This document shows, piece by piece, positions 4,172 through 63,159 of a stretch of DNA of 64,000 bases. A program made the position numbers and the translations under genes. Each line of letters opens with the position of its first letter. Position 1 is the first letter of the stretch. The stretch covers positions 25,606,001 through 25,670,000 of the forward strand of contig NC_090347.1 of the NCBI RefSeq assembly GCF_035084215.1, read 5' to 3'. The notes beneath the pieces are model-generated. The model did no database searches, was not told the DNA's origin, and was given only the letters and a program-made list of their open reading frames with translations. This stretch comes from Heptranchias perlo. Its lineage: Eukaryota.

Positions 4172-4425
4172 CTACAACTTGCAACAAAGCAAGCGGATGC
4201 TCTGCTCGCGAACAGGAGGCAGCAACAAAGCTGAGGTTCACCAAAAAAAACCACAAACGCACAAAACTGTCATGATAATCATACACATTAATTGTTACTG
4301 AAGGGATTAAAAACCATGGTGAAGTTTAAATGAAAAAAAACAGCATATACAGAAATCGCTGGGAAAGAAGCTCAAAACAGAGAGTACAGAAACAACTGTT
4401 AAGCACAACATCAGTCGGATGCCCA
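4172..4425. repeat. ~255-bp segment, copy 1 of a local duplication (copy 2 at 5803-6065)
   Basis: ctacaacttgcaac...cagtcggatgccca occurs twice with scattered substitutions and short indels. Confidence 0.95.
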
Positions 4426-4968
4426 TGATAGATAAACTTAGAACAATGTAGTTGGAGATTGCTGAGGCAGTTCGAAACTATTAGAAAAACAGGACATGTG
4501 TGAACAAGAAAGAGGAAGATGGTTAATAAGAGGCTGCTTCTGGATTAACACAATATCAGGAAATGGAGAGATATACAGACAGTCAACCATTCCTCATTGA
4601 TGCCTAGCAACAGTGGGTGATCGATCAAAGTGGGACTCACCCCTAACTTGCACACCTGTTCCAACCGGCAAGAACAACATAAAAAGAAGACATCGTGGCC
4701 GGTCCAGCCCTGCAGTCAATGGAGCTCAAAGAAGCTCTGCCTAGAGTAAGGACGTCCAACAAGAAGAAGCTCAAGTGCTACGAGAGCTGATCACTCCTGC
4801 CTTGATGCTGAAATCCTTAATTTAACGTTTTATGTATTGCTTGATGCTTGTGTGAACTGTTAAATCATTAAACTTAACTTTTGATTCACTAAAGTACAGA
4901 ATAGCGTGAGTTGCTTTGGTTGTTTACTGCTCGGGTGCACGAATCATTGGAAAATCAGCTATCCTACA
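4426..4968 (+). repeat. 5' LTR of element 1 (start could instead be the TG at 4447)
   Basis: TG...tcctaCA, TATA-like cataaaaag near 4678, ATTAAA near 4867, PBS 5 nt downstream; no second copy to confirm the 5' boundary. Confidence 0.65.
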
Positions 4969-4973
4969 GATTT

Positions 4974-4991
4974 TAGTGCCCGAACAAGGAC
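4974..4991 (+). promoter_or_regulatory. Primer-binding site, tRNA-Lys type
   Basis: TAGTGCCCGAACAAGGAC matches the tRNA-Lys3 PBS TGGCGCCCGAACAGGGAC at 15/18 positions. Confidence 0.8.
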
Positions 4992-5608
4992 AACCCAACA
5001 TAATCAGACAAAGAACGAGTAGAATATCCTGTCCAGTGATAGAACAGAAACAGGGGGGGGGGTCGATTTTAAGATGGCCGAGCGTGTGCGTTCGTGGCGG
5101 GGCGGGGGGGGGGGGGGACTCCGAAAATTCAGGATTCCTGGGGCGGGTCCAGAGCCCGGCTCCAACCCGCCCACTTCTGGGTTCCCCAATGATGCACTTA
5201 GATGCACACGCTGCCTCCGCATGCAGGACTCCCACTGGCAATTAAAGCCAGCGGGACCCAATTAAACCAATTATTTTGATACTTCAGGTCGTTAGCATAC
5301 CTGATTGGGAGGATATTTTAGGAGGGGTGGGATTTTCATCCAAACTGAGCGTGTTTCCCATACTGGTGGAAACACTCCCAGTTGAAATAGACGTGTTGCA
5401 GCCACCAGCCTATGGGAGCTGCAAAGGTCCATTTGACAGGTGGTGGGGGGACCCTCATCTATTGCAGGAGGCCACTCTGTCACTTTGGACAAAGTTTGAC
5501 CTGCACCACCCTCCTCCTAACACAAGAAATCACCAACTTGGAACCTCAACCCTGGTGTCCAGACACATTTACTTACCTTGCGGACCCCCTCAAACGTACA
5601 TCTTGAGG

Positions 5609-6330
5609 ATGGGGGCCGCCATAGCTGCAGTCATGACCTCCTCGGAGGACGAACAGCATCATCAGCCTCGCCGGCCATGCCGTCCACCTCTGACACGTGG
5701 AGCTCCACAACACAGTGCTGTGACACATCCACCTGCAGAGCAGGAGGGAGGGCAACTGCAGAGAGAGATGTGTCGCAGAAGGCACTACCCTCACCACAGG
5801 GTCTACAACTTGCAACAGAGCAAGCGGGTGCTCTGCTCGCAAACTGGAGGCAGCAACAAAGCTGAGGTTTACCAAAAATAACCACAAATGCACAAAACTG
5901 TCACAATAAATCATACACATTAATTGTTACTGAAGGAATTAAAAACCATGGTGAAATTTAAATGAAAACAAAAAAAAACAGCATATACAGAAATCGGTAG
6001 GAAAGAAGCACAAAACAGAAAGAGTACAGAAACAACTGTTAAGCACAACATCAGTCGGATGCCCAAGACCGAGGCTCAGCTTCCTGGATCTCTCTGAGGA
6101 GCAGTGCACATGGAGGCTCAGAGTCACTCGACATGTAGTCGTGGACATCAGCAGACTCCTTGATGCCGAGCTGCTCCCGGCTGGCCCGAGCACCTTCTTC
6201 TTACCTGTCGCTGTCAAAGTCACCGGTGCCCTCAACAGCTTCTCCTCCGGATCCTTCCAGGGTGCCAGGGGACATCGCCGGTGTCTCTCAGTCGTCTGCA
6301 CAAATGAGATCTGCAAATACACCTACACCC
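5609..6330 (+). pseudogene. Harbinger transposase N-terminal fragment (HARBI1-like), disrupted
   Basis: RRHYPHHRVY|RPRLSFLDLSEEQC...LPVAVKVTGALNSFSSGSFQ...GDIAGVSQSS; broken by the 5803-6065 insert; DDE core missing. Confidence 0.8.
5803..6065. repeat. ~260-bp segment, copy 2, inserted in the Harbinger transposase
   Basis: Splits the reading frame ...gggtctac|agaccgagg...; homologous to 4172-4425. Confidence 0.95.
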
Positions 6331-6535
6331 ACTCTGCAGTGACACAATGGGTGGCATCAGGTGTGGGTCTTCATGGTGATCCTCAGGAAAGGGAATTATT
6401 GCACAAACCAGACAAGATTTGCAAAGATGTGGCAGTCGTGGTGATAACAAATTTTTATGTTTTTTTTGCAAAACAAATGAAAGTAAATCAAAAACATGAC
6501 ATTTTGTCTGACACCCTTGTGCATCCCCTTTGCTC

Positions 6536-8371
6536 TCACAAAACCTTTGCCTTGTGTTTACGGGAACCCCTACGTGGTGCTACCCCAGTGGCTTCAGCAG
6601 AGGTAGTGGCAGGTTGCTTTTGTCCATGCCCTGACCGATGAGATGCTTTGCACGGACGCCCTCTGGGTTTCGATGCCCGTGAGAGCCTCTCCAAAGACTG
6701 CTCCACCTGCACCTGTGCAGGGGCAGACTCGGCCACCTGGAGAGGAGGCAGCATTGCGGGTATTGGTTGAGAGGGGGGCAATGGATGAGACGTGGGAGCG
6801 CTTTGAGTGGCGTCCCCACTTCCATGTCCCCTTTCACCATCATCCCTCTCCTGGCCCAGGCCCACATCACTTCATCCACCCTACTGGACGACAGTTTGGA
6901 AGACTTGTGTGAAGCCTTGGAAGGCCAGTTGTAAGGTATCTGTCAGCCTGTTTAAGGCGCAGAATGTTGCTCACCCTTAATCCGAACGGCTATTGTCAGG
7001 GCCTGAATGGACTCATTGTTGAACCGTGCAGACATTCCCGCACCTATCTGCGACACTACCTCAGAGATGCCTTCACGTCCCTGTGACACTATCTCGGAGA
7101 TACCCTCATGTACCTGTGCCACCGTTCCACCCATGCAGGAGTTAGACTCCTCCATTCTCTGTACGATTGTGGAGAGTGCGCGTGGCAACTGTTCCAGTAC
7201 CTCGGCAATGTGCTGCTGGCCCTCGATGACTCTCCTTTTCAAGGCTGGCCCCCAGGATTCAGCATCTGGGTCCAGCTGAGCAGAGCCTGGACAAGAGTGC
7301 TCCCACTGACACGGACTCTCCATGGCTACCCCTGCCACCAGGGTCTGCTCGTGCTCACATGTGCATGGTGACTCACCATGTGCAAGCCCAGCTAAGTGAG
7401 GACGGGGACCCACCGAAATGTGTGTATCTGCGCTGGTGGATGGCTGGCTCAGATGTGACGATGCCCCCTCAGAGGCCGGCAGGTCCTCTGAGGAATTGCC
7501 CTCTGCAGCCACGGCGGTCGCAGATGGCCCTGCAAGAGAACAGAAAGCAATATTAAGCGTGTGGACAGATGTTGAGGTGCTGCAGATGCCAAGTGATGCT
7601 AAGATCATTCGCTATCATGAGTGCTGAGTGTTAGATTTCTGTCACCAGCCGCTTGTGCGCTCCCAGTCAAGGCATCTGCCACGGACAGGCACTCCAGCTT
7701 GCGGCTTATTTCCATTGCCTGCTGCTTCGTGTCCGTTAGGACCACCTGGTGAGGCAGGCCCCCTCCGGTCCTTGCCCTCTCCCGGGCATTCTGGCATCTC
7801 TTCTCCTATCAAGGCAAAACACAGAGAGGCGTTATTGAGTGCTGGTTGCATAGTAAACCGCTGCATGCATTGGTGTGGGTGGGGGTGAGAGTGAGGGAGA
7901 TGCATGGGAGGGTGTGTGTGAGACATAGCCATGAGATTGTATGAGGATTGGGTTGCGTGGTAGTGTGCGAATGGGAACTGGGGCGGTGAGTAAGTGCAGG
8001 CAAGGTGAGGATGATGGTAGAGTGGATGTGAGGAGTGATGCGAGAGCATTGTGGTGGCAGTGCAGAAGGAGTTGTGTGGTGGTGGAGGTGATGTGGAAGA
8101 CGGAGTGTGGGAGAATGCGTAAGTATACTCACTTTGGCTGACCTGGTTAGCTCATTAAAGCGCTTCCTGCACTGGACCCAGGTTCGGCACACATTGCCGC
8201 TGCTGCTGACCTCCTTGGCCACCTCCAGCCAGGCCTTCTTGGTGGCAGAGCGAGGCCACCTCCTCCCATCAGATGGGAACAGAATTTCCCCCTCCTCTTC
8301 ACCCTATCGAGCAGCACCTGGAGTGAGGAGTCAGAGAACCTTGGAGCAGCCTTGCCTCTGGCCTGCTCCAT
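6536..8371 (-). pseudogene. Harbinger Myb/SANT-like DNA-binding protein gene (multi-exon, frameshifted)
   Basis: MEQARGKAAPRFSDSSLQVLL...AWLEVAKEVSS...RTWVQCRKRFNELTRSAK|gtgagt (first exon 8133-8371); further minus-strand ORF segments at 6952-7608 and 6536-6879. Confidence 0.8.
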
Positions 8372-8664
8372 GCTCCAAAATTGGCTCTTTGCTGCAGGAG
8401 AAGCATTGGAGGACTGCTCCTTTAAATAGGGGGTCCTCCTGCTGACAGACTGTGATGCGGGTGCGCAGTGGCCCACTGCACAGGTCTGGAACGGGAAACC
8501 CGGAAGCACACGTAAGTACCTTCAATTAGGCTGCGATCACGTGCGGAGCACCCCAAATTCACTGGGCGCGTTACCCACGCACCCAGTCGACCCCCCGCTG
8601 CCAACCCGCCTCCCTTCTAATATCGGGCCCAGGGTTTCTGGCTGGGTACTAGCAGGATAATAAA

Positions 8665-10420
8665 ATGGAAGCAGCAATGCGAAAATTTATAGCGAAGAAG
8701 TTACCAAGGAAAGAGGAATGGTACCTGATAGAGAACCATCAAGTAGTCCCCTTCATGGCATACGATGATAGGTGGTTGTGTATGTTGGAAGAACAACCTA
8801 AGCTAAAGGCCATATGGTTACTTGCCCTCTGGAAACAAAAGCATAATGATGAGAAGGAGAGGCAAGAGCTAAAAATGGAGGTAGATATTATAAAAAGGGA
8901 AGCGGAGGGAGTAAAGGAGCAGTTGAAAAAGACGCTCAATAATTGAAAGAGAGGTGGCCAGAATAGTGAAAAACATATCCAAACCCAAGGCTGCTACGTA
9001 GAGTACTTCCAGAGCTAGGCCCTGGTTAAAGAAAGCAATCTTACCATAAATCAGGCAGCCCAGCAAGAGACATTAGAGAAATTCAGAAATGTGGAGAAAC
9101 AAAGGAAGTTCTGAAGGCAGCAATACGGCTGCAGATGAGCACTAAGGGTTCATGGGATTGGGGGTAATATATTATCATGGATTGAGGATTGGTTAATGGA
9201 CAGAAAACAAAGAGTAGGAAATAAGGGGTCATTTTTGGGTTGGCAGGTTGTAACTAGTGGGGTGCCACAGGGATCGGTTCTTGGGCCTCAGCTGTTTATA
9301 GTTATGGAAAAGGACAAAGATAGAACAGGAGTAAAAGTTCTAAAATGAGGAATGGCCAATTTTACTAAGCTGAGAAGTGATTGAGCAAAAATGGACTGGA
9401 AACAGCTACTTGAAGGTAAATCAGTGTCAGAGCTGTGGGAGGCATTCAAGGGGTTCAGAGTAAACTTGTTCCCACAAAGAAAAAGGGTGGGACTGCATGA
9501 CAAGGATGACAAGGAGCATACAGGGTAAGATAAGGCAAAAAGAGGGAAGCTTATGTCAGACACCAAGAGCTCAATACTGCAGAAAGCCTGGAGGAGTATA
9601 AAAAGAGCAGGGGTGAAATTAAAAACGAAATTAGGAAAGCAAAGAGAGGGCATGAAAAAATACTGGCAAGTAAAATCAGGTGGAGCAGGCTCGAGGGGCC
9701 GTATGGCCTACTCCTGCTCCTATTTCTTATGTTCTTATATTCTAATGAATAGAACTGTAGAGGATCAGAAGTACCCCGTTCTCACTGTAAATGTAAAATT
9801 ATTCAATTCGAAAAAGCCCTACAAGTAAAACAAGAAATTATATGCACAATGAAAGAGGATAATAGTGATAGTGAATTAAACGAACAAGATTGGGATGATT
9901 TAGACAGAGAGGTTGCCGAATACAGACACCACGACAACTACCCGCTAGAATATGGGTCCCTCAATGGCAGGAATGGAACAGGATAAATATAATGTTGATG
10001 CCCAGGGTGTCAGTGCAACCGTAGCACAGAGATTTGATGTACCATATATCCCTCAACAAGTACAAGATATGGCTAAAGCAAAACCCAATTTCAATGGAAA
10101 TGGAAATGTGGTTAAATACTTTAAAGACATAGAACAGGCCATGGAGCTTAGTGGACTCGATGATACAGAAAAGATACAATTACCATGATGGACTTTAGAG
10201 TCAGTGGTATTCGGAGCGCTGCCCCAAGATAGGAAGCATGGCCATGAAACGTGACCGCAAATGAAAGAGGCAGTGCTTACTAGGAGATCCTAGTGAGGTC
10301 TTAACAAATTGCAGGCAGGAGCCTAATGAACATCCCTTAGTATATGCCAATCAATTATAGCAGTATTATGAAAGGCTGTATGGGCCAAATCCAGCTCGAA
10401 ACCAGTTGAACCCTAACCCT
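8665..10420 (+). pseudogene. gag: gag remnant of element 1 (coiled-coil N-terminus, capsid-like region), interrupted by CR1
   Basis: MEAAMRKFIAKK...coiled coil; PYIPQQVQDMAKAKPNFNG...GLDDTEK and CRQEPNEHPLVYANQL align with element 2 gag (PFTLSQLNDIAKNVPKFNG...GLDEGE; FKQGDEEHPHAYAECL). Confidence 0.75.
9140..9738 (+). mobile_element. Rearranged CR1 LINE fragments inside gag of element 1
   Basis: RT segment (SGVPQGSVLGP), then an upstream ORF2 segment, then 3' tail ...ctcctgctcctatttcttatgttcttat. Confidence 0.8.
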
Positions 10421-10434
10421 GCGACCATAATCTT

Positions 10435-10970
10435 ACCTCATCAGACATAGTTGAGAGAATGAATCGAATGTTAAAAAGTATGCTAAAGAAGTTGATTGAA
10501 CAATCCTACCAAACATGGGGCCAGTTGTTGCCCTTGGCATTAATGGCCATGTGATCTACTAAGTCAAGTACCGCCAAGGTTTCACCCCATGAGCTAATGA
10601 CAGGGAGAGTGATGAGAACACCTGAACATTTGATGTATCAGGACATGTCTGAATCTCAGAATCAGGTCTTGACCCGGGAATGATATGTTAACAAACTACG
10701 TGACCAACTGCAACAGATAATGATCTTTGCAGCCGCTAATATTGGGCAATCTAAAAAGGCCAATAAGATGTATTTTGACACCAAAGTCAAAGCAGTGGAA
10801 TGGGATGTGGAACAAACAGTCATGGTGAAAACATACCAACAAGCAGGGCCATTCCTGGCTCGTTTTTCTGGACCATATCGCATTGTGGATAAAGCCAGTC
10901 CATCTGTGTACAAAGTAGCTCTGTGAAAGGGAAAATTAAAATGGTTCCATGTCAACCAGTTAAAAAAAGA
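10435..10970 (+). pseudogene. pol: Integrase C-terminal half of element 1
   Basis: IVERMNRMLKSMLKK...WGQLLPLALMA...SPHELMTGR...RFSGPYRIV...WFHVNQLKK (catalytic E and GPY/F motif); several in-frame stops. Confidence 0.9.
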
Positions 10971-11299
10971 GAGTATAAAGGAAATGTACTCGGAGTATTC
11001 GATCAGATGGAGGAAGCAATTCCTCAAGTCTCACTCGTGCTATAGGATGAGGAGGACGACACAATATTATACCCACCTGTGGCAAGTCAGGGAAATACAA
11101 GCCCTGGACAATTAAGGCCGAAGCCAAGGCCTCACCCACCACGGATGGATGTTCGTTCCTTCGTTGTGTGGAGCCTGGATCAAATAAGACCAAGCAAAAG
11201 ATGATCACCACACAGGGGAAACCAGGAATAATGATATAAAAAAAGGTAATAAAATATTAACCAAGAACAGCTACACCCTGTGTGTTTTTCCTTTCACGG

Positions 11300-13280
11300 T
11301 ATTCAATTGATCTGCAGGATGGATCATGTGCAGAATAAAACGAAGATATTTTGGTGGTGGATTTAATGTGTTATGTCTATTATGTGTAATGCATCTACGT
11401 GTAACAGATCTGTGAGAGAAAATAATAGGAACAGATGGGAATGTGTCTTGACTGCCTATACACCTACTTTTCAAAATGGGATCACCTGGGAGATGCCCTT
11501 CGATAACATGGCGGAGAAAGCTCATGTTAAAATACAGGAGGAGAGTGTGCGTTTAATCTGTAAATGTACGAGGAGTGGACCAGCAGTCGTAAATCAGGGA
11601 TGCCTGTGGGACCAAAAGGACCACATCGAATAAATTTGGCTGGGGGACATCAGGGGATACCATATAGAGTAGACGAACCCCAGAAACAAGGAGAGTTGGA
11701 ATCTAGCCTCAACTGGCCACAATTTGGACCTTGACATGAGGGCTGTTATAAGTGTAAGCACGAGTGGGACCAATATAAAGCCAGTGGAAGGGGAGCTGGG
11801 ACAAATGGACTAATGTGTCTGATGATGACCAACAAACAGGAAGAACGAGAGATGGAGAAAAATCTAAATAAGGATTGCCCTATACAAGGAAAGAGTCCCA
11901 CGAGTGGTTTGACTGTCACCCGTACTCATGATACCTTATATAATGATGTAAGATTTGAAATAGTTCCCGTAATATTTGACCTTAGCACGTACACTTGTCC
12001 CAAGGGTTATGTGATCCCATCTATGAAGACCTCTATGCTAACATGATAAGGAAATTAGTCGAGGATTTTATAAGCCAGAACGCGGGGAGGAACCTAGAGG
12101 AACAATGGCCATTCAGTTGCCAAGACCAGCCATGTTAAAGTACACTCTGTTCACCCCTGTAACAGTCATACCCAGTAAAAAGGGTCAACTGAAGAGAGGG
12201 CAAGGTGAATGGGTAGGAATAGGGGCAGCCACAGGCACTGTGGTATGGAACCAATTCGATATAGAATCAATGTGGGAAAACAATGAGGCTATGAGGCAAC
12301 ATATGAAGGGTATCCTATCAAAAATGGCAAATGGGAACCATGATTTGGTAATAGAACAGAAGGAGAGTGTCTCCTCTCTGTCAGAGATGGTAAAAGGAAT
12401 GCAAACTCTTGAACAGAAGATTAATGATATCATTCTGCAATAAGGTAGGGAAATCACCTCTCAAATCGTATCAAAGTCCATAACCTGTGCGATGTATGGA
12501 GGGTTTATGTTAAACCAAATACGAAAAGGATTAAATGACATCGAAAATAACTGGATACCAAACTTTATCACGAAAGAAAACATTGACAAATGGTATCAGG
12601 AGCCCAGAGATGTTAGAGTCAATTATTCTAAGATTCGGAAGTATGGGACTGCTTAGTATGCCAAGTGAAAGTATGGAAACAGAGATACAGGATGGGGATT
12701 ATCACCTGCCATGATATTGTTGCCACACATTGGATGGCAGCAAAAATGGGAAGTCTTTAAGGTTGAGTCCATTGGTACCCTTGAAAAGAAAGTCCATAAA
12801 CAATACGCCGGATATCCCCATAACATTAAGAAACGCGACGGACTCCTGATCCTCCTTGTTTAGCACAATAAGTTAGATCATGGATATGTAGATGTGATAG
12901 TGCTAATCGAGGAGTACCGGCCAGTGGGTTTACCCTCCCCGTCCTGTGCAATTCAACTCCAGAGATGGAATAATCACCAGGAGCAGAGCGCCTGTTTAGA
13001 AAGGAGGAGGTATTGTTTGAGCACCACCAGTAAAAGGTATTAACATGGCAAGAAACAGTGTCCGGTGAGGAATCCTACTTTTTGCTTCACCCTGACAGAG
13101 GGGGATGCAAATGGAAAATCGGGTCATACTCCCTGTTGCTGCCTATAAGATCATGATTGGTGGGAAGTAGTGTATAATGTGGGACAACACCTGTGGACAA
13201 GACTGTTTAGTATGGCTCTGATATGTATGCAATGTATATTGGTGTTATGATAATTTGCTAATGTGTAATGAGATGTCTAA
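11300..13280 (+). pseudogene. env: env remnant of element 1 (F-like class I fusion protein)
   Basis: YNDVRFEIVPVIFDL, QLKR|GQGEWVGIGAATGTVVWN + heptad region, CAMYGGFMLNQIR, YCLSTT..CPVRNPTFC, WWEVV..TM; colinear with element 2 env. Confidence 0.75.
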
Positions 13281-13289
13281 TTCAAAAAC

Positions 13290-13528
13290 ACATTGCTGTG
13301 GGTCTGGAGTCACATAGGCCAGACTTCCTTCTCTAAAGGGCATTAGTGAAGCAGATGGGTTTTTAATAACAATCTGGTTGTTTCATGGCTACCATTACTG
13401 ATACTAGCTTTTTATTCCAGATTTTATTTAATTAATTGACTTTAAATTCCCCAGCTGCTGTGGTGGGTTTTGAACTCATGACTCTGGATTACTAGTCCAG
13501 TAACATAACGACTATGCTACCGTACCCC
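13290..13528 (-). mobile_element. tRNA-headed SINE, partial
   Basis: Reverse complement of the ggggtacggtagcatagt..ttactggactagtaatccagag head. Confidence 0.75.
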
Positions 13529-28860: not shown

Positions 28861-29484
28861 TGTGGAAATGGAAGAAGTAGTGTAAAACTGAAATAAAATG
28901 AAGGAGTCACCATGTGTAAGGGATAGTGGATAAATAATGCAGAGGTTCAGTAATGTTCTGAAACAGAGGGCTCATAGGTAACCTCGTCAGACATGGGTGA
29001 GGTCACTACAGAGGCCAATTAACAAACAATGGGTCAATGAATGAAGTAAGATGGGACAGGTTGTAGAATAGGATAAACTAATCATCAGGGCGCAGGAAAA
29101 GGGAACAAATGTGTAATCAAGGAGATGGGACAGATTATAGTATAGTATAAACCAGGAGGAAAAACCCCAGATAGCAGCGAGAACCTAAGAGCAACACTCA
29201 ACAGCAGGGACCTGGGGACAGAAACCCTACGTAGAGGTTTGGACAGAGATTGACCACCTCGGACCAAATCGGGCAATATCAATATAAGTTGCGAGTCTTA
29301 TATTTTGGAATTGTACTTTAAACTACGAACGGTGTTTGTTAAGCATTTATTAAAGATAAATTTTTGTACGTGAAATCTGTTGCCGGTGTGTTTGTTCAGC
29401 CCAAACTGACATTTGAACCCTAAAAGGAAAGGTTGCTAACCTATTTGTTCGATCTTTCGAACATCTAGTGAAATCGGAGCAACA
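28861..29484 (+). repeat. 5' LTR of element 2 (~624 bp)
   Basis: Begins TG at the CR1 breakpoint, ends CA 2 nt before the PBS; TATAAAA near 29145, ATTAAA near 29349. Confidence 0.75.
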
Positions 29485-29486
29485 AT

Positions 29487-29505
29487 TGGCACCCCCAGAT
29501 GGGAC
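29487..29505 (+). promoter_or_regulatory. Primer-binding site, tRNA-Arg(CCU) type
   Basis: TGGCACCCCCAGATGGGAC is the complement of the tRNA-Arg-CCT 3' end (TGGCACCCCAGATGGGAC) with one extra C. Confidence 0.8.
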
Positions 29506-29564
29506 TTGAGAACTTTGGTTTGGACAAAATATATCACAGTAAGGGGCTGAACAAGCGACAGACA

Positions 29565-29660
29565 GTATCTGTCAGAGTCGGATAAGGAATATCCGTTAGA
29601 GTCGGATAGGGAATATCCGTTAGAGTCGGATAAGGAATATCTGTTAGAGTTGGATAAGGT
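29565..29660 (+). repeat. 4 x 24-bp tandem repeat in the proviral leader
   Basis: (atatccgttagagtcggataagga)x4 with minor variants; unit contains TATCCG-7 nt-CGGATA inverted repeat. Confidence 0.95.
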
Positions 29661-29685
29661 TTTAAAGCAGTAACTATGGTGGAAC

Positions 29686-31377
29686 ATGACACGTCTAAAG
29701 GGGAGACCTCCCAGGATTGGGAAGAACAGTTGAACCAGTTAATGGTAGGAAAATATTAGGACTGGGCGGTGACGATCGCCAGTCCAAATTTCAAAGGAGG
29801 TCAGACCTTCTTTGAGCACAATAATACAAAGGGAAAAATGAAACAAAAAAAATTTAAATATTTTCTGATGGCAGCCTGTTACTCCGAATTAATGAGCGAG
29901 CGAGCATTAACACACAGTCAGGGTCAGACCCAAAACCAATTGCAGTTTGATTTAGACAAGCTCCGGAATCAGGTTAAAAATTTGCAAAAAGAAAATGAGG
30001 AATTTCGTAGTGATAAAAGATTGCACACTCTCCATATGGCCTCTATTATGACTGCAGTCGAAGCAAGTAATCAAAAATTACACCGAATGCAGGAGCAACT
30101 AGATGAGTCCACAAGGGACCGCTGTGCCCTAGAGGAAAAATCAGCCCTCAAGATCATACAACAGTCTCACCAGCGGGAAAAATACGATAAAACGGATCAT
30201 ACCCACTGTCGTCAAGAAATAGAAGTATTAAAGTCACAATTATGCTCACACAGAGGCATAATATGCTCTTTCTCCAACGGAGGCGGAGAGGGTATCGACT
30301 ACTTAAGTCTGGCCGAGACGGCCCAGAACTATGAGAGGGACCGATCAGGAGAAGGGGACTACGGCCCCCCTGACCCGTCATGGTACGATCCCCCGCCACC
30401 CTATTGAAACAATAAAGGTCCTACTGCCCCACAGGATGGGCTTGCTGCCCCAGAGGAGCCGCCACCCCCACTACCCATGAACCCTATGGTCACTGTTCAG
30501 ACACAGGAAAGGATCGACGGTTAAGCAGTAGACGCTGTGCCCAACGGACCCATCAATTATGCCACCCCTTTTACTCTCTCCCAATTGAATGATATTGCCA
30601 AAAACGTACCCAAGTTCAATGGCAAGATTAATTTTGAATTATGGAAGGCCTCTGAGACTCAGGGACTAGATGAGGGAGAGCTGAGGAAACTAGTGACTTT
30701 GTGTTTGGGACCTGTTATATTCGGGGCCATGCCCCAAACCCAGAGAACAGGGCAGGGTACCATAGTTAAAATTGTGGATCGCCATTAAGGAGGTGGCAGG
30801 AGTTAACAGCAAGGATCCCGTTATGGAACTAGCAAACTTTAAACAGGGTGACGAAGAACACCCCCACGCTTATGCGGAATGCTTGTGGGTGATTTTCTGT
30901 AACCTGATGGGAACATTGAACTGCGACAATCTGGATGATGGTCCTCATGCCACCTGGTTTAAGTCCCTCATTTCCCATGCCTCCGATTCCGGTAAAAGGG
31001 CATGTAAGCTCTTCGACCCTACCGACGACACTCATAATGAGGCCTGGATTTTAAGGTGTATGACCAGGGCTTGGCAGGACGATCAAAATCAATCCTCTCT
31101 CCAACCAAAAGATAAAATCCACGCTTTCCGCTCAGGCCCAGATAGAAATGACCCGCCAGCGTGGAGGACTGAGGGATCTCCAAGGTATTCGGTAGCAAAC
31201 CAGGGAGATAGGGGATATGGACCACTAAGGGGACCCTGTTATAACTGCGGAAAGATGGGACATTGGCAAAGGGAGTGTCAGGCGCCAAAAAGTAACCGGT
31301 CTGGCGCTGTGGGATGCTCCGGGCGAATGGCACCCTTCCATGAGCAACCGGCACTCGAGCCCGGGGGCCAACAATGA
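29686..31377 (+). pseudogene. gag: gag of element 2 (coiled coil, PPPY, capsid with MHR-like motif, one CCHC knuckle); start uncertain, stops and frameshifts present
   Basis: ORFs 29769-30407, 30537-30788, 30772-31377; DPPPPY; FKQGDEEHPHAYAECL; CYNCGKMGHWQREC at 31237-31278. Confidence 0.88.
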
Positions 31378-32947
31378 CGGGGTCCAACCTCAGAGGTCGT
31401 GTGCAAGGCAGGATGTGACAATCATGGACGGCCTAGAGTCTCAGGTGTCGTAAGAGGTCGCGATACCACATTTTTATGGGACACAGGCGGATCCAGAACA
31501 TGTCTGGGAAACCAGCACCCTCTCTCGCCCAACGACTTAACTAATCAAGAAATTCTCCTTTGTGGCTTCACCAGTCATGGGCAGACCGCTACAATCACTA
31601 AGCCATTGGAGATTCAATTGGGAAGTTTCAAACTTAAGCATGCCTGCCAGTCAGTGCCACAGATGCAGGCGGAATCGGCAATAATTGGTATTGATTTCAT
31701 GAGAATATATAATTTGGCTTATGACCCAGCAAAGCGATGTATTTGGAGAACGTGCAAAACTTGTTTTGACGGGTTAATACCCACGGGGACGTATGACGCG
31801 TGCGTATGCTGCATGAAAACTTTTACTTTTGTTCCTTCTGCCACAACAGACGACCCGGAAATACAAGATATTTTAATCCAAAACTCAAATGTTTTTGCCA
31901 CCCACAAACACGAGTGTGGCCGGATGGCCGGACCGGTCTCAATCATGGGACCCGAACCCCCGCCCCAGAAGCAGTATAAAATTCCCGTAGAGGCAGAAAA
32001 GGACTTAGACAATAATATTCACAGTCTCTTGAATCAAGGCGTGCTCCGACCCATTGCTTCTACCAATAACTCACCCATTTGGCCTGTTCAAAAACCCGAT
32101 AAGTCCTGGAGAATGACTATAGATTACCGAGCCTTCTGTGGCACCCACTGTTGCCACTGCCCCAGAGACCACTTCAAAACTTTCCCCAACTGCAAAAATC
32201 TTTACTGTCCTGGACATCAGTAATGGATTTTGGTCCATACCCTTAACAAAAGAATGCCAGTACAAATTTGCTTTTACTCACAAGGGACAGCAGTACACTT
32301 GGACCCGGTTGCCTCAAGGTTTCCACAACAGCCGCTCAATATTCTCAAACATACTGGCAAATAGTTTGAAGGGATTTTCCCAGCCCTCAGCACTCGTTCA
32401 GTATGTTGATGATATCCTCCTCCAAACTGACACCATGGAGGAACATAAGGTCCTGTTACAGGAACTATTTAAAACCCTCCACAAGATTGGGGTAAAGGTG
32501 AACCCTAAAAAGGTGCAGATTGCAAAACCCTTTGGGAAAATGGGCTCCTTCCATATGCACCATGTCATGTTGGACGTGGGGGAGGACGATACTGAAGGCC
32601 CAGCCACCGCTGGCCTCCCTGTGCCAAGGGCTCTCGAACCAGCAAACATAAATAGGTCTGGCTCAGACCCAGAAAAGTCGGAGGGGGAAACGGGGTCCAG
32701 CACTGAATTGGGATCTGATCAATTGGGATCCGACTCTGACGATCTGACTGAAGACCTTGCCCAGGGATTACAGAGGTTGTTTTTGGAATCTCCTAGGGTG
32801 GCCCCTCGAACCCCGTCTTTAATCCGACCTGTCAACTGGACTAGAAACCATTCTCTACCCCCGCCCAGTCCAGGACAACCCAAACGATTGCATCGAGCAT
32901 CAGAAAATAAGAGCAGTTGCTACCCTGATCTTTATTTTTCTTTCTAG
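31378..32947 (+). pseudogene. pol: pro-pol of element 2: aspartic protease + reverse transcriptase; RNase H and most of integrase deleted near 32530
   Basis: FLWDTGG (D at 31480), IIGIDFM; NSPIWPVQKPDKSWRMTIDYR, LDISNGFW, LPQGFHNS, YVDD (32402-32413); one frameshift near 32135. Confidence 0.95.
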
Positions 32948-32964
32948 GTAACTGATTATTGCTC

Positions 32965-35110
32965 ATGGAAATCCCAGTAGCCACCCTTCTGGGGTACTGT
33001 GGTCTGGTGTTTGGCTGTATCATCCTCGCTGAGAACTCAGATGTAACTGTTATCGCAGATGGACGGAACAGTCAGAACTGTGCCCAAGACAACAATGCAG
33101 GTTTCCATGCACCTACCAATGGCAACAATGAGTGCAGTTGTAGCAGCCAAGGAAAAACCTGCTATGAGACGGCAACTGAAACTCAACTGAACTTTGTATG
33201 TATTGCTTGTACGGGAAAAGATGTTAAGGCTATAGTATGGATAGCTATGCAGAACACAGGGGACACCCACAGGGTTCTATCGGGGGGCAACTCCTGTTGG
33301 TTCAGAGCATGAGATGAATTGTACTAAGATAGATAAACAACTGTGTTGCAACATAAGCAAGACAAGCACCTCCTTACAGATTATGGTTGGATGTAGCAGC
33401 AATTCAACTGTAAGAAACCTAATCAGTAATCCACGAAAGAGCTTAAAACCAACGTGCTTGTGTAAACACCAAGGAAAGCTAGTGGTTCAGGTGTTACAGA
33501 CACCTACTACCCCCGAGTCAACTACCCCACTCATTGTTCAGACCACCACCCCGATCCCTACGACCCTGGTTCCAGTTTGGGACTGCTCCGAACACGAACC
33601 GGGACCCAAGGGAGGAGTAATATTAAGAAACACGACCAAAATCGTTTCTGATAATATACAATATGAATTAATACCTATAGTACTGAATATAATCGATGTA
33701 CAATTACCTGATTGGTGCCCGGAGGGAACCAAAAGATTGTATCAGGACTTGACTTCGATGTTGCTCAAGGGAGAGATACGAGGGAAGCAGGGAAATGAAA
33801 CAAGGACAGCTAGGAAAAGGAGGAAGAGAGGGTTACTGAATGATGCAGGGACAGTCTATGGAGCAGGAATGGTCACTGTAAATACTCCAGATATAACTAA
33901 TTTGAACTCCAAGATTAAAATCTTAACCCAGCAAGTCAAAACGTTATTGGAGGAACTGTATAATAATCTAAGACAAGAGTCACAGGCAGGACAGGAAAGT
34001 ATAGGGATCCAAACACAACAGGTGAAGGTCTGAGAAGGACATGCACGGACTATTAATCAACTTATTAACACAGCCAAAAAGGCGGCGAACGGAACCCAAC
34101 AACAAACACTGTGCATGACATATGGCAATTGGATGCTGGACCAGCTGAGAGAAAACTTAATGCTGGCAAAATGTGAAGAAGCACCCATTTGGATCAACAA
34201 TACTGAAATCCGGGGTCTGATAAAGCAGAATGTTCCTGCTACTATCAGTGACTGTGAACTACTGAAACTCAGCAGGGTATGGTTCAACGAGGAATGTACG
34301 GGCTCCCGTGGAAGTACTGCTGTAGGGATGGTGATAGGAGTCCCCATGATAGGACACCAGGAAGGAATGCCATTATTGAGGTCCAAACCATAAGCACTAT
34401 ACAAAAAGGAGTGTGGGTGGCCGTGGCAAGAATGAGGCCATATGCTGTGAAGCAGAACGGTACTCTAGTGGGAACTGCATTGGGACAATGTGCCACTACG
34501 GAAAGAACAGTAATATGCCCATACAAAATTTACCCAACCCGCACCGCGCGATGCGGATTTAAGGGAAATACGTCCATGAATTGCTCCTTGATCATGGAGA
34601 ACGCGATTCACAAACCTATCACTCGAAGCGCTTATATGGGTGATGGAACATATTGTTTTACCACCACCGAAGTTAGTTACCGTTATGGGAATAAGGACTG
34701 CCCTATCCAAAACCCAACCTTCTGCACGCACCCCCTGATACCGGTGAGAATAGGAAATGAAGAAATTATCAACATCCAGAGGCATGCAACTGTTAATCTT
34801 AATATGTCAGTAGACCTGAAGAATCGCTTGACAAAATATTTCACAAAAATCGACATCAACATCCAGCTAGAGGAGGAACATATAACGGAAATTAGACATA
34901 AGCTTGATCTTGTTCATAAGATCTACGAAAGGGTGGAAATGAATACCCAGGACATTGACCAAAAGATTAAACAAATCAAAATCAATACTTGGTGGGGCGA
35001 CCTTTGGAATTGGGGCGAAAATGTCAACATACACCCCTGGGTGAGACTCGTGTCCCACCTGATTGTAATTACGATCATGCTGGTGTTGACTTTCATTATT
35101 AGCGAAGTGC
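32965..35110 (+). pseudogene. env: env of element 2: F-like class I fusion glycoprotein with N-terminal Cys-rich and Thr/Pro-rich extension
   Basis: Signal peptide MEIPVATLLGYCGLVFGCIILA, RKRRKR furin site (33812-33829), fusion peptide GLLNDAGTVYGAGMVTVN, heptads, Cys-rich block, WWGDLWNW, TM; lesions near 33310, 34031 and 34370. Confidence 0.85.
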
Positions 35111-35124
35111 CAATGAAGTGCCAA

Positions 35125-36026
35125 TTAATTTTGTCCCAGATTATTGTCTCCAAACTTTTTCCCACCTCAGGGGTGTAACATTTGCAATCCTCAGTCCTCT
35201 GGTGCCACCCCCATATCTAAGAAGAATTGGAAGATTGTGGCTAGAGCCTCTGCAATTTCTACCCTGACTTCCCTCAGGAATCTAGGATGCATCCCATCTG
35301 GACCGGGTGACTTTCTGCTTTGAGTATTGCCAACCTTTTAAGTGCCTCCTCTTTATCTATTTTTATTCTATCCAATATCACTACTACCTCCTCCTTTACT
35401 GTTGCATTGGCAGCATCCTCTTCTCTGGTGAAGACTGATGTGAAGTATTAATTTATTACCTCAGCTACACCCTCTGCCTCCACAAGATCTCCTTTTTTGT
35501 CCCTAATTGGCCCCACCCTTCCTTTGACTATGCTTTTACTATTTATATGTTTATAAAAGGCTTTTGGGTTCTCTTTTATGTTAGCTGTTAATCTATTCTC
35601 GTACTCTCTCTTTGCCCCTCTTATTTCCTTTTTTAGATCTCCTCTGTTCTTAGCTTGGTTCTCTACTGTATAACAAAGCTTAAATTTGTCATAAGCCTCC
35701 TTTTTCTGTTTCATTTTAATCTCTATATCTTTAATCATCCAGGGAGCTCTAACTTTGGCTGCCTTTCCTTTCCCTCTCATGGGAATGTGTTTACTCTGTA
35801 CCCAAACCATCTACTCCTTGAAGGCCTCCCATTGTTCAATTACTGTTTTGCCTACCAATTTTTGATTCCAATCCACCTGGGCAAGATCCATTTTTAACTC
35901 ACTGAAATTAGCCCTCCTCCAGTTAAGTATTTTTAGGCTTGATTCTTCCCTGTCCTTTTCCATAACTGTTCTAAATCTAATGATATTCTGATCACTGTTC
36001 CCCAAATGGTCCCCCACTGAAACATG
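35125..36026 (-). mobile_element. CR1 ORF2 segment, probably the upstream part of the CR1 split by element 2
   Basis: HLGNSDQNIIRF, NPKAFYKHINSK, SPGPDGMHPR; homologous to ~57850-58815. Confidence 0.9.
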
Positions 36027-40500: not shown

Positions 40501-43103
40501 ATTTCTACTCTTTTATGACTATATTAATTAGCAATAGATATACTGAAGTTCAAGCAACACTGTAAGGACAAGGACAGTTAAATAAGAAGGCCCACAACCT
40601 TCTCAGGGCAAATAGCCATGGGTATTAAATATGGCCTTGTAGCATTGCCCACATCTTGAGAACAAATAAAAACAAAATAAATTCTTTAAACAGCCATTTT
40701 CTGAGATTTAAAAAAATAAATACCATGAACTTACTTTGAAAATCTTTCTGCACCTCATTAAACCCCTGTTCCACATTCCACACAGCACAGGTATAACTGC
40801 CTTCCAGGTCGCTTTCCATTACTTCGATTTGAAGCATGCTGGTGATCTTGAACAGCCCCTCTGTGGTTCTTATACTACTAGTTTTAGACTTGGATGTGAG
40901 ATTACTCATTCCATTGACAAACCAGTGAATCTGAGCCAGTGGGTATCCAGTTGTTACACAACTGAGGTTTGTTGTTCTCATTGTTCTTGTGAGATTTGGA
41001 AATAAGGTCACTTTTGGCAAACTGTACGGAGCTAAAAAAAAATGATTGCACTGTTATTAATGTAATGAGAGAAAGAGCTGTAGAAAAATAGAGGGGCAGC
41101 TTTTATACTTTCTCCCCCACCCAGCAAAAAATAACAACCATTCTTGGTAAATAATAAATCCCAGACTTATGACATTAGTTTGGTTGAATTTAGGTTACCT
41201 TAGGTTTGGGCTGTGATAGAGGAAAACATTTAGTGGTACCAATTTGTCACTTTGAGTTAATTTCTGAAAACCTGAATTTGACACTTTTCGGGAAGCTTCA
41301 GATTCTGGTCCACCTTTCTTTTTATCATTTTTGTCTAATTTAGAAAATAGCTTGTACATACATCTTGCATATTTTGTACGAATGTTTGGTTCCTCTAGCA
41401 ATCCAGTGATGGATTTGCACTGATGTTAATGTTTATTTAGTCTGGATAGTTTCATAGAATCATAGAAAGGTTACGGCATGAAAGGAGGCCATTTGGCCCA
41501 TTGAGTCCTCACCGGCTCTATGCAAGAGCAATCCAGCTTGTTCCACACCCCCGTCCTTTCCCTATAGCCCTGCAAATGTTTTCCTTTCAAGTACTTATCC
41601 AGTTCCCTTTTGAAGGCCATGATTGAATCTGTCTCCACCACCCCCTCGGGCTGTGCACTCCAGATCCTAACCACTCGCTGTGTAAAAAAAGTTTTTCCTC
41701 ATGTCACCTTTGGTTCCTTTGCCAATCACCTTAAGGTAAGAAATGAAGCAGGATTTTCGAAACCCCAAAATCTACCATAATTTAATCTGGAACAGTCTAA
41801 CGCCCATGTTATCTAACACACTGTTTCAATGTTTTAACAACACTTAAAATGGAGAATAAGAAATTGCTTTCTTAAACTGTAATGCCTGGAGTAACAGTAA
41901 TTCATAAAAAAAATATACTGTGGAGATCCCTCTCCACAGCACTGTATAGCAGCATACAAAATCATGTTATTGAAAGGGAGTTTATCACTTTTCTTTAATG
42001 TTGCTGCTGATTGAAAATAGATATAAGTATTAGCTTGACTCAGTTAGGACCAATCCCACTTCTGAGTCAGAAAGCTGTCCCACTATGCACTTGAGTACAT
42101 CAACTTGCCTGGCACTTCAATACTGTACTGAGGGAGCATGCATTGTTGAAAATGTCATCTTTCAGATGAGACATTAAATTGAGACCCCCAGCTACCTGCT
42201 CAGGTGGACAGAAAAGATCTCGTGGCACTATTCAAAGATGAGCAGAGTGTTCTCCAGGTGTCCTGGCCAACATTTGTTGTTCAACCAACACCACCAAAAT
42301 CAGATGAACTGATCAATCATTTAGTCGTTTGCTCTTTGTGGAATTTTGCCATATGCAAGTTGGCTGGTGAGTTTGCTCAAATAACAACAGTGGCTGCACA
42401 TCAAAGCAATCCCCATCTGTAATATGTTTTGGGATGTTCAGAGGACATGAAAGTTGCTATTTAAATGCACGATCATTCTTTCTTTCCTCTCTAAACATGA
42501 CTCTCATTATAACATGCTGTTTGCATAACTAACATGTCAAGCTTTTTAGGATTAAAATAATACTGGAATTTGTTGCCAATTAGAGGCAATCAATATTTTA
42601 CAAGGAAAAATAGCACAGAAAGTATACTTTAACCCACCTTTAACCATCAGTGTGATGTCTTGATTATCGTAACCAACATCAGTTTCCAAATAATAGTTAT
42701 ATGTCCCAATATCTGACACTTGTGTTTTCTGGATTACCAGTGATATATCTTTTGAATCTTGTTGAAGTAATTTAACTCGACCATTAGAACTTTTGTTTGA
42801 GTTAAACATAAGTGTTTCTTCTCCATATTTTTTCAGTTGAATGTAATCAATTGTTCCCTCCTCTTTTGATTTGATTCTGCATGGTAGTTTAGTGTCTTCA
42901 TTAAAAATTCCTGTCACTGAATGTTCACAGTCCAAACTCATAAACCCTGAAAAACAATCATTTTCATTAATTTATATTATCTCAATGACAATCGGTAATG
43001 AATGAGCTACATACTGAGAAGCACTCCAGTACTTACTTTGTGCAGAGGGTGTGCTTGTGCATAAAATGACATAAAGAAGACTTATTGAACGGTGTGAACC
43101 CAT
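37582..43103 (-). CDS. B7-family type I membrane protein, PD-L1/PD-L2-like (gene B): join(43103-43037, 42946-42638, 41031-40735, 40428-40288, 38868-38824, 37598-37582) in the pre-insertion model
   Basis: All junctions GT-AG and phase 1; leader-IgV-IgC-TM-short cytoplasmic layout; IgC motifs APYS.P, CxxxGYPLA.I.W, RTTEGLFKITSML, YTCAVWN. Confidence 0.85.
37680..38823 (-). mobile_element. 5'-truncated CR1 LINE inserted in sense orientation at the exon/donor boundary of gene B
   Basis: DVVYMDFSKAFD..PQGSVLGP..FADD; (ctatgatt)n tail; TAG on both sides (38824-38826, 37677-37679). Confidence 0.95.
38824..38868 (-). CDS. Gene B cytoplasmic exon (VRRGSRYPNVVTKKI)
   Basis: Acceptor tttttgctttttcttcaacag|TT; in phase with the TM exon; runs directly into CR1. 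Confidence 0.75.
39182..39560 (+). mobile_element. tRNA-headed SINE
   Basis: Same family as 1367-1757. Confidence 0.85.
40288..40428 (-). CDS. Gene B stalk/transmembrane exon
   Basis: LDLPNHDPQSEGKKNKVLTAVFVIVGALLSGIVILAVLRFKRRWYP; ccag| and |gtacg; 141 nt. Confidence 0.9.
40735..41031 (-). CDS. Gene B IgC exon
   Basis: APYSLPKV...LSCVTTGYPLAQIHW...YTCAVWN; 297 nt, tag| and |gtaagt. Confidence 0.95.
41453..41733 (-). mobile_element. CR1 3' end (intronic)
   Basis: catagaatcatagaaagg tail; FKRELDKYLKGK. Confidence 0.9.
42030..42488 (+). mobile_element. Deu-domain-type SINE (SacSINE1-like)
   Basis: tRNA-like head, gtcatctttcagatgagacattaaa..caggtggac..aaagatc core, gctatttaaatgca tail. Confidence 0.75.
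42638..42946 (-). CDS. Gene B IgV-like exon (non-canonical)
   Basis: LPC, GRVKL, DISLVIQKTQVSDIGTY, ITLMVK; 309 nt, tcag| and |gtgggt. Confidence 0.92.
43037..43103 (-). CDS. Gene B signal-peptide exon (exon begins at 43121)
   Basis: gaaATGG context with an in-frame upstream stop; MGSHRSISLLYVILCTSTPSAQ A|gtaagt; 90-nt intron to IgV. Confidence 0.85.
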
Positions 43104-61097: not shown

Positions 61098-62904
61098 CTG
61101 AAATGACAAATTGAGATATTTCACTACAATTTACATCATGCACCCCCAAACTTTAATTCAAACAATTTTTTTGTGGAAGGCACCACATTATATTAATTCA
61201 TGAGTTCACAATGTCATGGGCCAACTGAATTGTGTGCAAGCCTCAGCATACTTTGAATTGAAACTTCCTTCAGATGATTCGTTGTTGTTGGCCAAATTGG
61301 CAGATGTGGCACTTAATGGATGTGATGTACTTAGCCGTAAGAACCAAGAAAACATTGACAGGGATTCAACTCTGGATCAGACTTCAACAACGTCACCAGC
61401 TGGCAACAAAGCTTACCCAGTGGAGGTCTGGGCTTGTTGACAGGAATGTAATGAGGAGCAGAAATTATACAAACTTTAACAATTTAAATATGATTTCAAA
61501 TTTAGAAAAAATACTTGCAATCTAAATCATTCCATGCATGTCCATAGCTTAATAATCAATGAAAAATTAAATTATATAATTGAGGTAACAATAAATTAGA
61601 GCACTTAAATATGTTGACGGTTCATATTGGGCTTTATTTGGGGACAAAGCAAAGCTGAGTGGCATAGTAGATGTTGGGTTCGATATTGCCATTAGATTAC
61701 AAATATAACTTTAAAAGATGAGTGAGTACCCTCTTGTAATCTAATGGCACATGGGAACCACATGACCATTACTTTAAACTGATCCCCAAACTCCCATTCA
61801 GCAGCTGTGAACTTCCTGGCTTTTTTCCCAGCCCAACCAGAAACTCTTCTCTGACCCAGCCCCAGGATAGGAGCCGACACATTGTCCTCCCTTGACATCT
61901 CCAGCCTTCAACTTCCAGAGCTGCCTTCCCCACACATGTCCACACCAGATCGATTGCCACTGGACCACCCATTTTCCTGGCCTTACTGCTGAGTCTCATT
62001 TTCTCAACCTCAATTCTGGACTTCCCATTGTCCAGCTTCTAGGGAGATGCTTTATTTGCCATCTGGAGTGTCTCAGAAATTTGAATTTTGTGTTGCTCAA
62101 GATGAAAGCTGTTGGTGTTCGGGAATAGAACGTCATTCAATTTTCTGCATGCAATGTCAGAGTTGGCACTCCCTCATCAGATACAGAAGAGATTTGTTCC
62201 AAGGCAACATGCTCTCTGCTCCACCTCAGTAAAATATCGTAACTTAAACCTCAGGAGTTCATTCCTTATAATACCGGCTGATAGCCATGTTTCCCACAGC
62301 AGCTAATCTTATAGCTCACTTAAAAAATAACAGCAAATGCTAATTTAAAGAGAGTCTATCTTATGACAATTATGAGCTGCTGCCAATCTATAAACTAGCA
62401 ACTTGAATTTACCTCAGGATCTCCCTATCTTGAATTAGCCACTCAAGATGTACCTGTCTACAGGCCTTGAAGGGACAGGCAATGTTAAAGAAAGCTCCTC
62501 CTTATGCGTTAAATGGAATAATGCTCCTGTCCTTATAAAACTCTGCCTTACTGAAAGCAATGTCATGTGGGAATCCAACAGTACAGTTCAGGATCATAGG
62601 TCAACAATCTCACTGGTACAATCTAATTCTGATGCTTCCCTTCATGCTTCACCGAGATTTTCAGCCTATCATCCCAGCCCAGTTGTGGAATTATTTTCTA
62701 CACCATGCCCAAGTATGCTTTATTTTTCTACTGGTGAAGCTGACCATCTGGCGTGAGTTCTTGAGTCAGAATCACTTGTAGTGACATTTCCAATAACTAA
62801 CCGCAGGCCATATATTTTATCCTCTGTGTGAAACCAGCCAGTGGTACAACTAAATCATGGAAAAACTTGCATTTCAATCAGAAGTAATTAAAACCAAAAC
62901 TTAC

Positions 62905-63159
62905 TTGCATATTTACATGTAATTTCAATGCATACAGAGCAATTATATTTTACGGAACACCATTCTCCAACTACTGGAATGTAACCAGTAATGTTGTACA
63001 GGTTATCTTCTGTATGCGTTATGGTAGAATTAGCAGTCAGGTCGGTTCCATTTTCATTCTGCCAGCGAAGATGTGCGAGCGGATATCCAAGTGCAGCACA
63101 AACAAGAACTTTTTCTCCACCTTGGTCCTTTTCGGTTATTTGTGGCACAGTATATGGAG
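62905..63159 (-). CDS. Gene C IgC exon, B7-family PD-L-like paralog; IgV and leader expected beyond the window end
   Basis: APYTVPQI...LVCAALGYPLAHLRW...EDNLYNITGYI...YNCSV; 255 nt, ttcag| and |gtaagt. Confidence 0.9.

Follow-up and report, generated by a model that had tools for sequence, protein, structure and literature searches.

What kind of virus left the broken retroviral remains at 4293-13290 of a 64,000-nucleotide stretch of the shark Heptranchias perlo (contig NC_090347.1, positions 25,606,001 to 25,670,000; hereafter the window), and how are they related to a second element lying downstream of them? The window corresponds to G000:C26:25606001-25670000 of the 3.25 Gb genome in which all searches were made. 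An initial annotation, based on the window alone, had proposed two families of an unplaced retroelement group with a fusion-protein-like (F-like) Env and different primer tRNAs. It is highly probable that the stretch is a single decayed, internally deleted provirus, likely of an endogenous retrovirus (ERV) resembling snakehead retrovirus (SnRV; clade Huo, class III side). The main interest of the locus lies outside the window, in a related env reading frame that sharks have likely captured as a gene of their own, judging from its sequence.

A decayed provirus and its neighbour of another family

The proviral stretch (4293-13290) is collinear with five other copies in the genome (L097, L100, L101, L103 and L107) at 67-86% identity. 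All of its segments are collinear with other copies (67-88%) and so form one element, in agreement with the initial annotation. The order is 5' long terminal repeat (LTR), primer site, gag, a deletion, integrase tail and env, every coding part being broken; this is the LTR-primer site-gag-pol-env order of Retroviridae, with pol completed only through relatives. Unrelated insertions lying in proviral order by chance might be suggested by the ~4.2 kb of foreign DNA between the LTR, the gag halves and the remainder. This explanation has a negligible probability, being refuted by the collinearity with other copies: neither insertion site is interrupted in L101, and gag or integrase, env and the same LTR, or collinear parts, are joined within single elements in L097, L100 and L107.

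All parts lie on the plus strand. The sole full LTR is the 5' one (TG...CA, 4293-4968), recognized by homology with L097 and L101. Its start is placed at about 4293 because that homology begins at 4296-4297, from where it runs to 4968; position 4426, formerly given as the start of the element, thus falls within the LTR. The same LTR sits 3' of env in L097 and L100, and as a query it found 43 matches in the genome (40 scored of 402 candidates). The N-terminal part of gag (8665-9145) contains stops and is 84-86% identical in DNA to L097 and L101; the broken capsid region (9742-10425; 74-82% to L097, L101 and L107) ends at a deletion junction. This deletion, at 10425/10426, removed the zinc knuckle, protease, reverse transcriptase (RT) and RNase H together with most of the integrase core, and where the window copy jumps to integrase L097, L101 and L107 run on into protease and RT. 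The C-terminal half of integrase follows (10426-11000; PF22938, E 4.9e-6, at the cut-off; PF24626, E 7.4e-6), with the GPY/F motif at 10867-10887. The remnant of env, of the F-type class I fusion protein kind (11319-13283), carries stops, frameshifts and an internal deletion near 13150 of ~190 bases relative to L097; its frame at 12042-13283 has 11 stops, five of them in the last 12 codons, and an AG stands directly before the likely ATG at 11319. Homology stops at 13290, where L097 and L100 continue into the LTR, and no 3' LTR was found in the window copy, which is therefore not datable by an LTR pair.

Element 2 (28861-35180, plus strand; LTR 28861-29484) is a member of a younger family and consists of gag-pro-RT, a deletion from RT to the end of integrase, and a broken env. 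All eight Env motifs quoted in support of its relationship to the window copy, together with QLKR and the GPY motif, are present in the window. They are found in the window copy at 11948 (VRFEIVPVIFDL), 12486 (CAMYGGFMLNQIR), 13059 (CPVRNPTFC), 13158 (WWEVV), 12186 (QLKR) and 10867 (SGPYRIV), and the counterparts in element 2 lie at 33656, 34112, 34699 and 34990. Significance was assessed by single-frame comparisons with X at stops and 300 shuffles each, none of which reached the observed score in any comparison. The capsid gave z 18.2 (30% identity over 100 residues, E 1e-7), env z 11.2 and 11.9 against the two env frames of element 2, a 5' piece of env z 5.6 and a second capsid piece z 6.0, the gag N-terminus being weaker (z 4.8). 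A profile of 32 Env proteins that included neither element matched both, with independent E-values of 3.7e-59 for the window env and of 1e-52 and 5e-51 for element 2. The proposed relationship of the two Gag and Env sets is upheld by the shuffled controls and, for Env, by the independent profile. The LTRs are indeed not recognizably similar (137 of 200 shuffles scored as well), and the window copy does keep the GPY/F half of integrase that element 2 is without.

The window copy represents a second, distinct family, as had been proposed. Its integrase tail is 37-41% identical to those of three copies of element 2's family and forms its own branch in a quick-method tree of 22 rows, from which rows aligned over no more than 100 residues were left out and which separates five host lineages. 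The RTs of its relatives are 48-55% identical to the RT of element 2's family. LTR pairs in the lineage of the window copy are 89.5% and 94.0% identical, less alike than those of three element-2-family copies (96.6-99.1%), indicating that the family of the window copy is the older. Element 2 would then stem from a younger invasion of its own, by a related virus that used tRNA-Arg as primer. That the two elements lie so near each other is likely a consequence of the group's high copy number; the group is diverse and abundant, as had been suspected: an env query yielded 109 matches (101 scored among 2225 candidates) and an RT query matched all 150 scored candidates (of 2603), both figures being lower bounds and not copy numbers. 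Five or more lineages were distinguished, and Lys, Arg and Asn primers occur among them.

Primer sites were compared with the tRNA genes found in the host genome. The decayed site of the window copy (4974-4991, plus strand) is of the tRNA-Lys(UUU) type, agreeing at 15 of 18 positions with host tRNA-Lys(TTT) plus CCA; nowhere else in the window, on either strand, does the Lys(TTT) 3' end match at 14 or more positions. In element 2 the site at 29487-29505 (plus strand, gapped score 16) fits host tRNA-Arg(CCG), so that the reported difference between Lys and Arg holds. It extends to the families: four of 30 LTR loci in that of the window copy (this copy included) are followed by a Lys-type site and none by an Arg site, and in element 2's family nine of 30 have an Arg site and none a Lys site, the loci lacking a site being 3' or solo LTRs or decayed below threshold. 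The Lys site of L061 is complete (18/18). A third family (L162, L164, L175) is primed by tRNA-Asn, and L170 has an Arg-like site. No primer site was found for the family of the open env described below or for several other loci (17 scanned, seven tRNA types). Primer switching between ERV families is ordinary (PMC1224870). Elsewhere in the genome, G000:C1605:471009-518863 holds dozens of tandem matches to the tRNA-Arg 3'-end pattern with short irregular spacing, possibly a tRNA-derived satellite; at L062:1501-1918 an exact Lys primer-site match opens a tandem run in which ARAGORN reads overlapping tRNA-like units.

Affinity of the provirus and predicted fold of its envelope

The group had been left unplaced; it is most likely that of SnRV-like ERVs, a kind already reported from cartilaginous fish (PMC4422223). 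The RTs of the relatives have the LPQG and YVDD motifs of retroviruses proper, intact or decayed, in a region deleted from the window copy, and the motif LDISNGFWSI matches SnRV and not the GFWAHPI of foamy viruses. Full pol in element 2's family comprises RT, a tether and second RNase H (PF17917/PF17919, then PF00075) and an H2C2 integrase; this family has one zinc knuckle. A single PF00098 stretch occurs in element 2 and in L096, and a matching stretch in L103 of the window LTR lineage; it is deleted in the window copy. An in-frame TGA separates gag from pro in all four element-2-family copies. In a hand count against the alignment in the supplement of PMC7947760, with three references only, the RT of L096 (element 2's family) was identical to SnRV at ~100 of 194 positions (~52%), to Loki-Lca at 78 of 193 (40%) and to simian foamy virus (SFV) at 80 of 193 (41%). 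The closest database RTs are from frog and coelacanth elements (52-56%). In an RT tree of 34 rows, which contained no named reference virus and no database row with 150 or fewer aligned residues, the shark families occupy separate branches in an unstarred clade with these elements. Among viral contigs, none of 43 candidate stretches was related to the RT query.

The shark elements resemble SnRV and clade Huo in RT motifs, in the highest hand-counted RT identity, in a single zinc knuckle, and in a host range of cartilaginous fish, frog and coelacanth; the in-frame stop of element 2's family may be a further likeness, if it is read through. SnRV likewise uses readthrough (PMC13517186) and has one zinc finger (PMC1224870); SnRV-like ERVs are the main ERVs of the coelacanth (PMC4977317) and are also on record for the elephant shark (Callorhinchus CmiERV lineage I; PMC4422223). 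Members of clade Huo occur in every major lineage of vertebrates (PMC6001957). They differ from SnRV in the primer, which is Lys(UUU) in the window copy and Arg or Asn in sister families, and in the readthrough stop, which is TGA in element 2's family and TAG in SnRV.

The Env of the family is predicted to fold like the F proteins of paramyxo- and pneumoviruses and like foamy Env, which agrees with the F-like label given initially. Structures were searched with predicted models of P0003 (from L039), a natural open Env of the group that is 34% identical to the window env over ~300 residues (z 106). With the full model (predicted local distance difference test, pLDDT, 59.6; best E 3.3e-7, template modelling (TM) scores 0.26/0.41), the PDB matches listed were all paramyxo- or pneumovirus F except a foamy Env at rank 4. 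Matches of the core model (pLDDT 70.8) were baculovirus F and human parainfluenza virus 1 F (E 6.3e-12, TM 0.47), glycoproteins of lispiviruses (TM up to 0.53), and the Envs of walleye and foamy viruses. A retroviral Env with the paramyxo/pneumovirus F fold is known in foamy viruses (PDB 8rm1; PMC11468914), from which the predicted shark Env and its virus differ in the zinc-knuckle Gag, the probable readthrough pol and an Env of ~760 residues with no detectable sequence similarity. Thus, "F-Env" is a fair description of the predicted fold, yet the fold is shared with foamy viruses (PMC11468914) and defines no new group. No F-type fold was given for SnRV-like Env in the literature searched.

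Pfam and PDB sequence searches returned no F or Env family match, the nearest being GP41 (E 0.085 and 0.0066) and Baculo_F (E 0.0011, in one of 43 relatives). A protein search with the X-read window env found no match among 917 candidates, and no SnRV Env sequence came from any protein or viral-contig search made. One unnamed cluster in the ESM Atlas (0.82) is a lead at most.

The fusion peptide of the window env is preceded by QLKR (12186), with no intact basic cleavage motif, and this had been explained as an RLKR decayed at a CpG. An R-X-K/R-R motif is present in 13 of 35 env loci read at this site, the closest readable ones (69% identity) included; among the 13, one place is counted twice and a further two seem to be a single duplicated copy. 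Depletion of CpG is general (observed/expected 0.35-0.49). It is likely that a basic motif was lost from the window copy after integration, but the word RLKR itself was seen at none of the 35 loci.

Several observations weigh against an SnRV-like virus with an F-type Env. Support for the clade of frog, coelacanth and shark RTs is 91/72 (91/94 with one further row), unstarred; the window copy is placed through its relatives, since it has no RT of its own; and the comparison with SnRV is a hand count made for element 2's family. The best matches of RT and integrase among solved structures are foamy virus proteins, there being no SnRV entry among those matches. As for Env, the fold was modelled on a relative of 34% identity, with a pLDDT of 59.6 for the full model and TM scores of 0.26-0.53, and in a wide VIA search with the full model the F proteins of human metapneumovirus and respiratory syncytial virus (Z 9.0-9.6 over ~280 residues) tie with short coiled coils. 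No sequence profile ties the Env to F: Pfam Fusion_gly (PF00523) matched none of the 43 relatives, the window frames or P0003, and the Env alignment profile found nothing in the PDB.

These points bear differently on the alternatives. A foamy-like endogenous virus (clade Tu) would accord with the foamy matches of RT and integrase, with the foamy Env at rank 4 of the fold search and with the YVDD motif; it is nevertheless quite improbable, given the zinc knuckle in Gag, the in-frame stop joining gag and pro in element 2's family, and an RT motif that fits SnRV, since a zinc finger is lacking in spumaviruses, whose pro is spliced separately (PMC1224870). Even less should be expected of a lokiretrovirus, by which that lineage would be extended to cartilaginous fish. 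The F-like Env, the R-X-K-R site of relatives (13 of 35 loci, the window copy not among them), and the tether with RNase H are traits given for lokiretroviruses (PMC7947760), and the closest Pol matches bear NYNRIN-like labels. However, the Loki RTs in the supplement of that paper have CPFG or TPFG where the shark families have LPQG, and the hand-counted RT identity to Loki-Lca is below that to SnRV. Loki-Str Env matches PF00523 (E 2.2e-7), which none of the 43 relatives does; no smc gene was noted in the shark elements, and in the published screen none of three orectolobiform genomes was positive, lokiretroviruses being unreported from the cartilaginous fish screened there (PMC7947760).

An unnamed deep lineage of sharks, frogs and coelacanth, only sister to SnRV and defined by its F-type Env, is just as improbable as a lokiretrovirus. 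The named Env relatives do come from sharks and frogs only, the RT identity to SnRV is only ~52%, and the Env of SnRV itself stood outside the comparison. On the other hand, SnRV-like ERVs of this host range already form a broad clade (PMC6001957, PMC4422223), and because the Envs of walleye epsilonretrovirus and foamy viruses match the model too, the fold marks off no lineage. From the sequences, the window copy is likely an SnRV-like ERV and not a lokiretrovirus. On the whole the initial annotation was right about a real element of a second related family with a Lys primer and an F-like Env, and it fell short in leaving the group unplaced, in the word RLKR and in the start at 4426.

The virus behind an SnRV-like provirus of this kind would have been enveloped, with reverse transcription primed by tRNA-Lys(UUU) and, going by the anatomy and by general retrovirology, with Env made from spliced RNA. 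Entry would have depended on a class I fusogen, cleaved by furin and similar in build to paramyxo/pneumovirus F and foamy Env; cleavage at a basic site would have exposed the fusion peptide. The window copy lost most of pol, before or after germline integration, and its 3' LTR; a transposon and LINE (long interspersed element) pieces entered it later, and it has decayed and is now inactive.

A candidate captured env outside the window

An open env of ~759 codons (in a 780-residue open frame) lies on the minus strand at G000:C6:50325194-50327470 (L093:2195-4471), within a decayed related provirus whose pol has eight stops and several frame changes while env is unbroken. Full-length protein matches were found in Heterodontus francisci (91%), Scyliorhinus torazame (87%) and Chiloscyllium punctatum (85%), the next best database match being 31%; the proteins listed with the candidate are XP_072333160.1, XP_067889054.1 and GCC29952.1. 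Its DNA has many paralogous pieces in the host genome at 83-92%, and the four best of these have 7-13 stops or frameshifts each where the open copy has none. Private synonymous and nonsynonymous changes number 36 and 24 in the open env as against 131 and 258 in the four paralogues (Fisher p 1.5e-4), so that the open env appears, from sequence comparison, to be under purifying selection. The synonymous excess may in part date from viral replication, which would leave the unbroken env beside a broken pol unexplained.

Most of the open env frame is covered, at ~95% and without gaps in the frame, by contigs of run X1, which is presumed to be RNA. Contigs of runs X1 and X3 stop at positions 4475 and 4473 of L093, at the AG immediately preceding the ATG, leaving 80 and 68 bases unaligned. 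The contig ends are as spliced RNA would give, which hints at splicing, both runs being from one study and only guessed to be RNA. No RNA record was found to contain the open env, a result that weighs neither for nor against its transcription.

It is somewhat probable that sharks captured an F-type env of the SnRV-like group before the orders of horn, carpet and ground sharks split, and that it has persisted in them as a host gene that is spliced and expressed. Separate infections by closely similar viruses, in place of one capture, would be a rather unlikely source of such proteins. If the env was captured, the window copy would be, with the same modest confidence, a dead member of the group that gave rise to it. 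The G000:C6 locus, and it alone, resembles captured envs such as the syncytins, percomORF/Percom-env and the Sebastes env clades in having an open env in a decayed provirus and near-identical proteins in several host orders (PMC12813294). It differs from them in its shark host and its predicted F-type fold, the queries of that survey having been TM (transmembrane subunit) sequences of syncytin and percomORF (PMC12813294). Many shark species are live-bearing.

Later insertions, neighbouring features and significance

About 4.2 kb of the 8.9-kb span of the window copy is foreign. A 3.6-kb DNA transposon in the leader (5054-8629, minus strand), flanked by a CAG target duplication, contains a Myb/SANT gene remnant (7809-8300; PF13873, E 3.3e-5), and from this gene and the 3-base duplication we take it to be Harbinger-like. 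As a query it drew 22554 candidates, the best copies at 87-93%, and its site is empty in L101. Within it, 5803-6068 (plus strand) is a local duplicate (91%) of 4172-4428, comprising host flank and the first 136 bases of the LTR; it is missing from other copies of the transposon, whose matches break at query positions 768/1027. Readings of 4172-4428 as a second LTR or as belonging to the transposon were rejected in favour of a local duplication across the host/LTR junction. A short word is common to source and insert at the left junction, and the 266-base copy, 1.6 kb downstream, was likely produced by a local template switch. The LINE fragments in gag (9146-9741, strand unassigned), presumably CR1-like, are absent from L097 and L101 and match other repeats of the window.

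Another provirus has a Harbinger-like element (L102:6696-8716) at the same leader position (window 5051-5054 / 8629-8632). The LTR of L102 is only 69% identical to that of the window copy and its transposon 77-84%, against ~90% for typical copies; the two likely inserted independently at a favoured, near-palindromic site. In L106 another Myb-bearing insertion lies nearby. Immunoglobulin V-set and C-set exons (PF07686, PF08205, PF22705) lie on the minus strand of the window at 40625-41053, 42552-42971 and 62888-63253, a cluster adjoining both proviruses that we assume from resemblance to be of B7/butyrophilin type.

Other members of the group were also observed. The third family, many-copied and with long open pol frames (e.g., G000:C2:53641000-53650600), has an RT 58-67% identical to that of element 2's family and an env that is a distant member of the same Env group. 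The env matches L037 and L038 (G000:C24, 38.24 and 38.40 Mb), which lie 156 kb from each other and score identically, likely arose by segmental duplication or as a duplicate in the assembly. Long Envs of the group are annotated as uncharacterized genes in Pelodytes (P0006), Xenopus tropicalis (P0007/P0049), Mantella (P0011 cluster, 16 members), Bombina (P0033 cluster) and Mustelus (P0012); those of frogs suggest recent activity of the group in these hosts.

Taken alone, the window copy matters little, as a fossil of a known kind of ERV in which differences in primer tRNA between families are common. The survey of Wang and Han in 2020 reportedly counts 177 co-option events. No captured shark env was found in the literature searched, that survey and the 3891-env set (PMC12813294) lying outside the search. 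According to the models, the Env of SnRV-like ERVs in sharks and frogs appears to have the F fold, which would make these ERVs a further retroviral branch with such an Env beside foamy viruses and lokiretroviruses, and this bears on whether the ancestral retroviral Env was an F-type fusogen, the scenarios being left open in PMC7947760. The G000:C6 env is of a kind that TM-based env screens could miss. If its capture is true, it would be a very old captured env on the predicted paramyxovirus-F/foamy fold and not on the gamma-type Env of syncytins, and would putatively serve cell fusion or receptor-blocking defence. Should synteny and expression confirm it, the G000:C6 env would be a candidate syncytin-like or antiviral gene of sharks.

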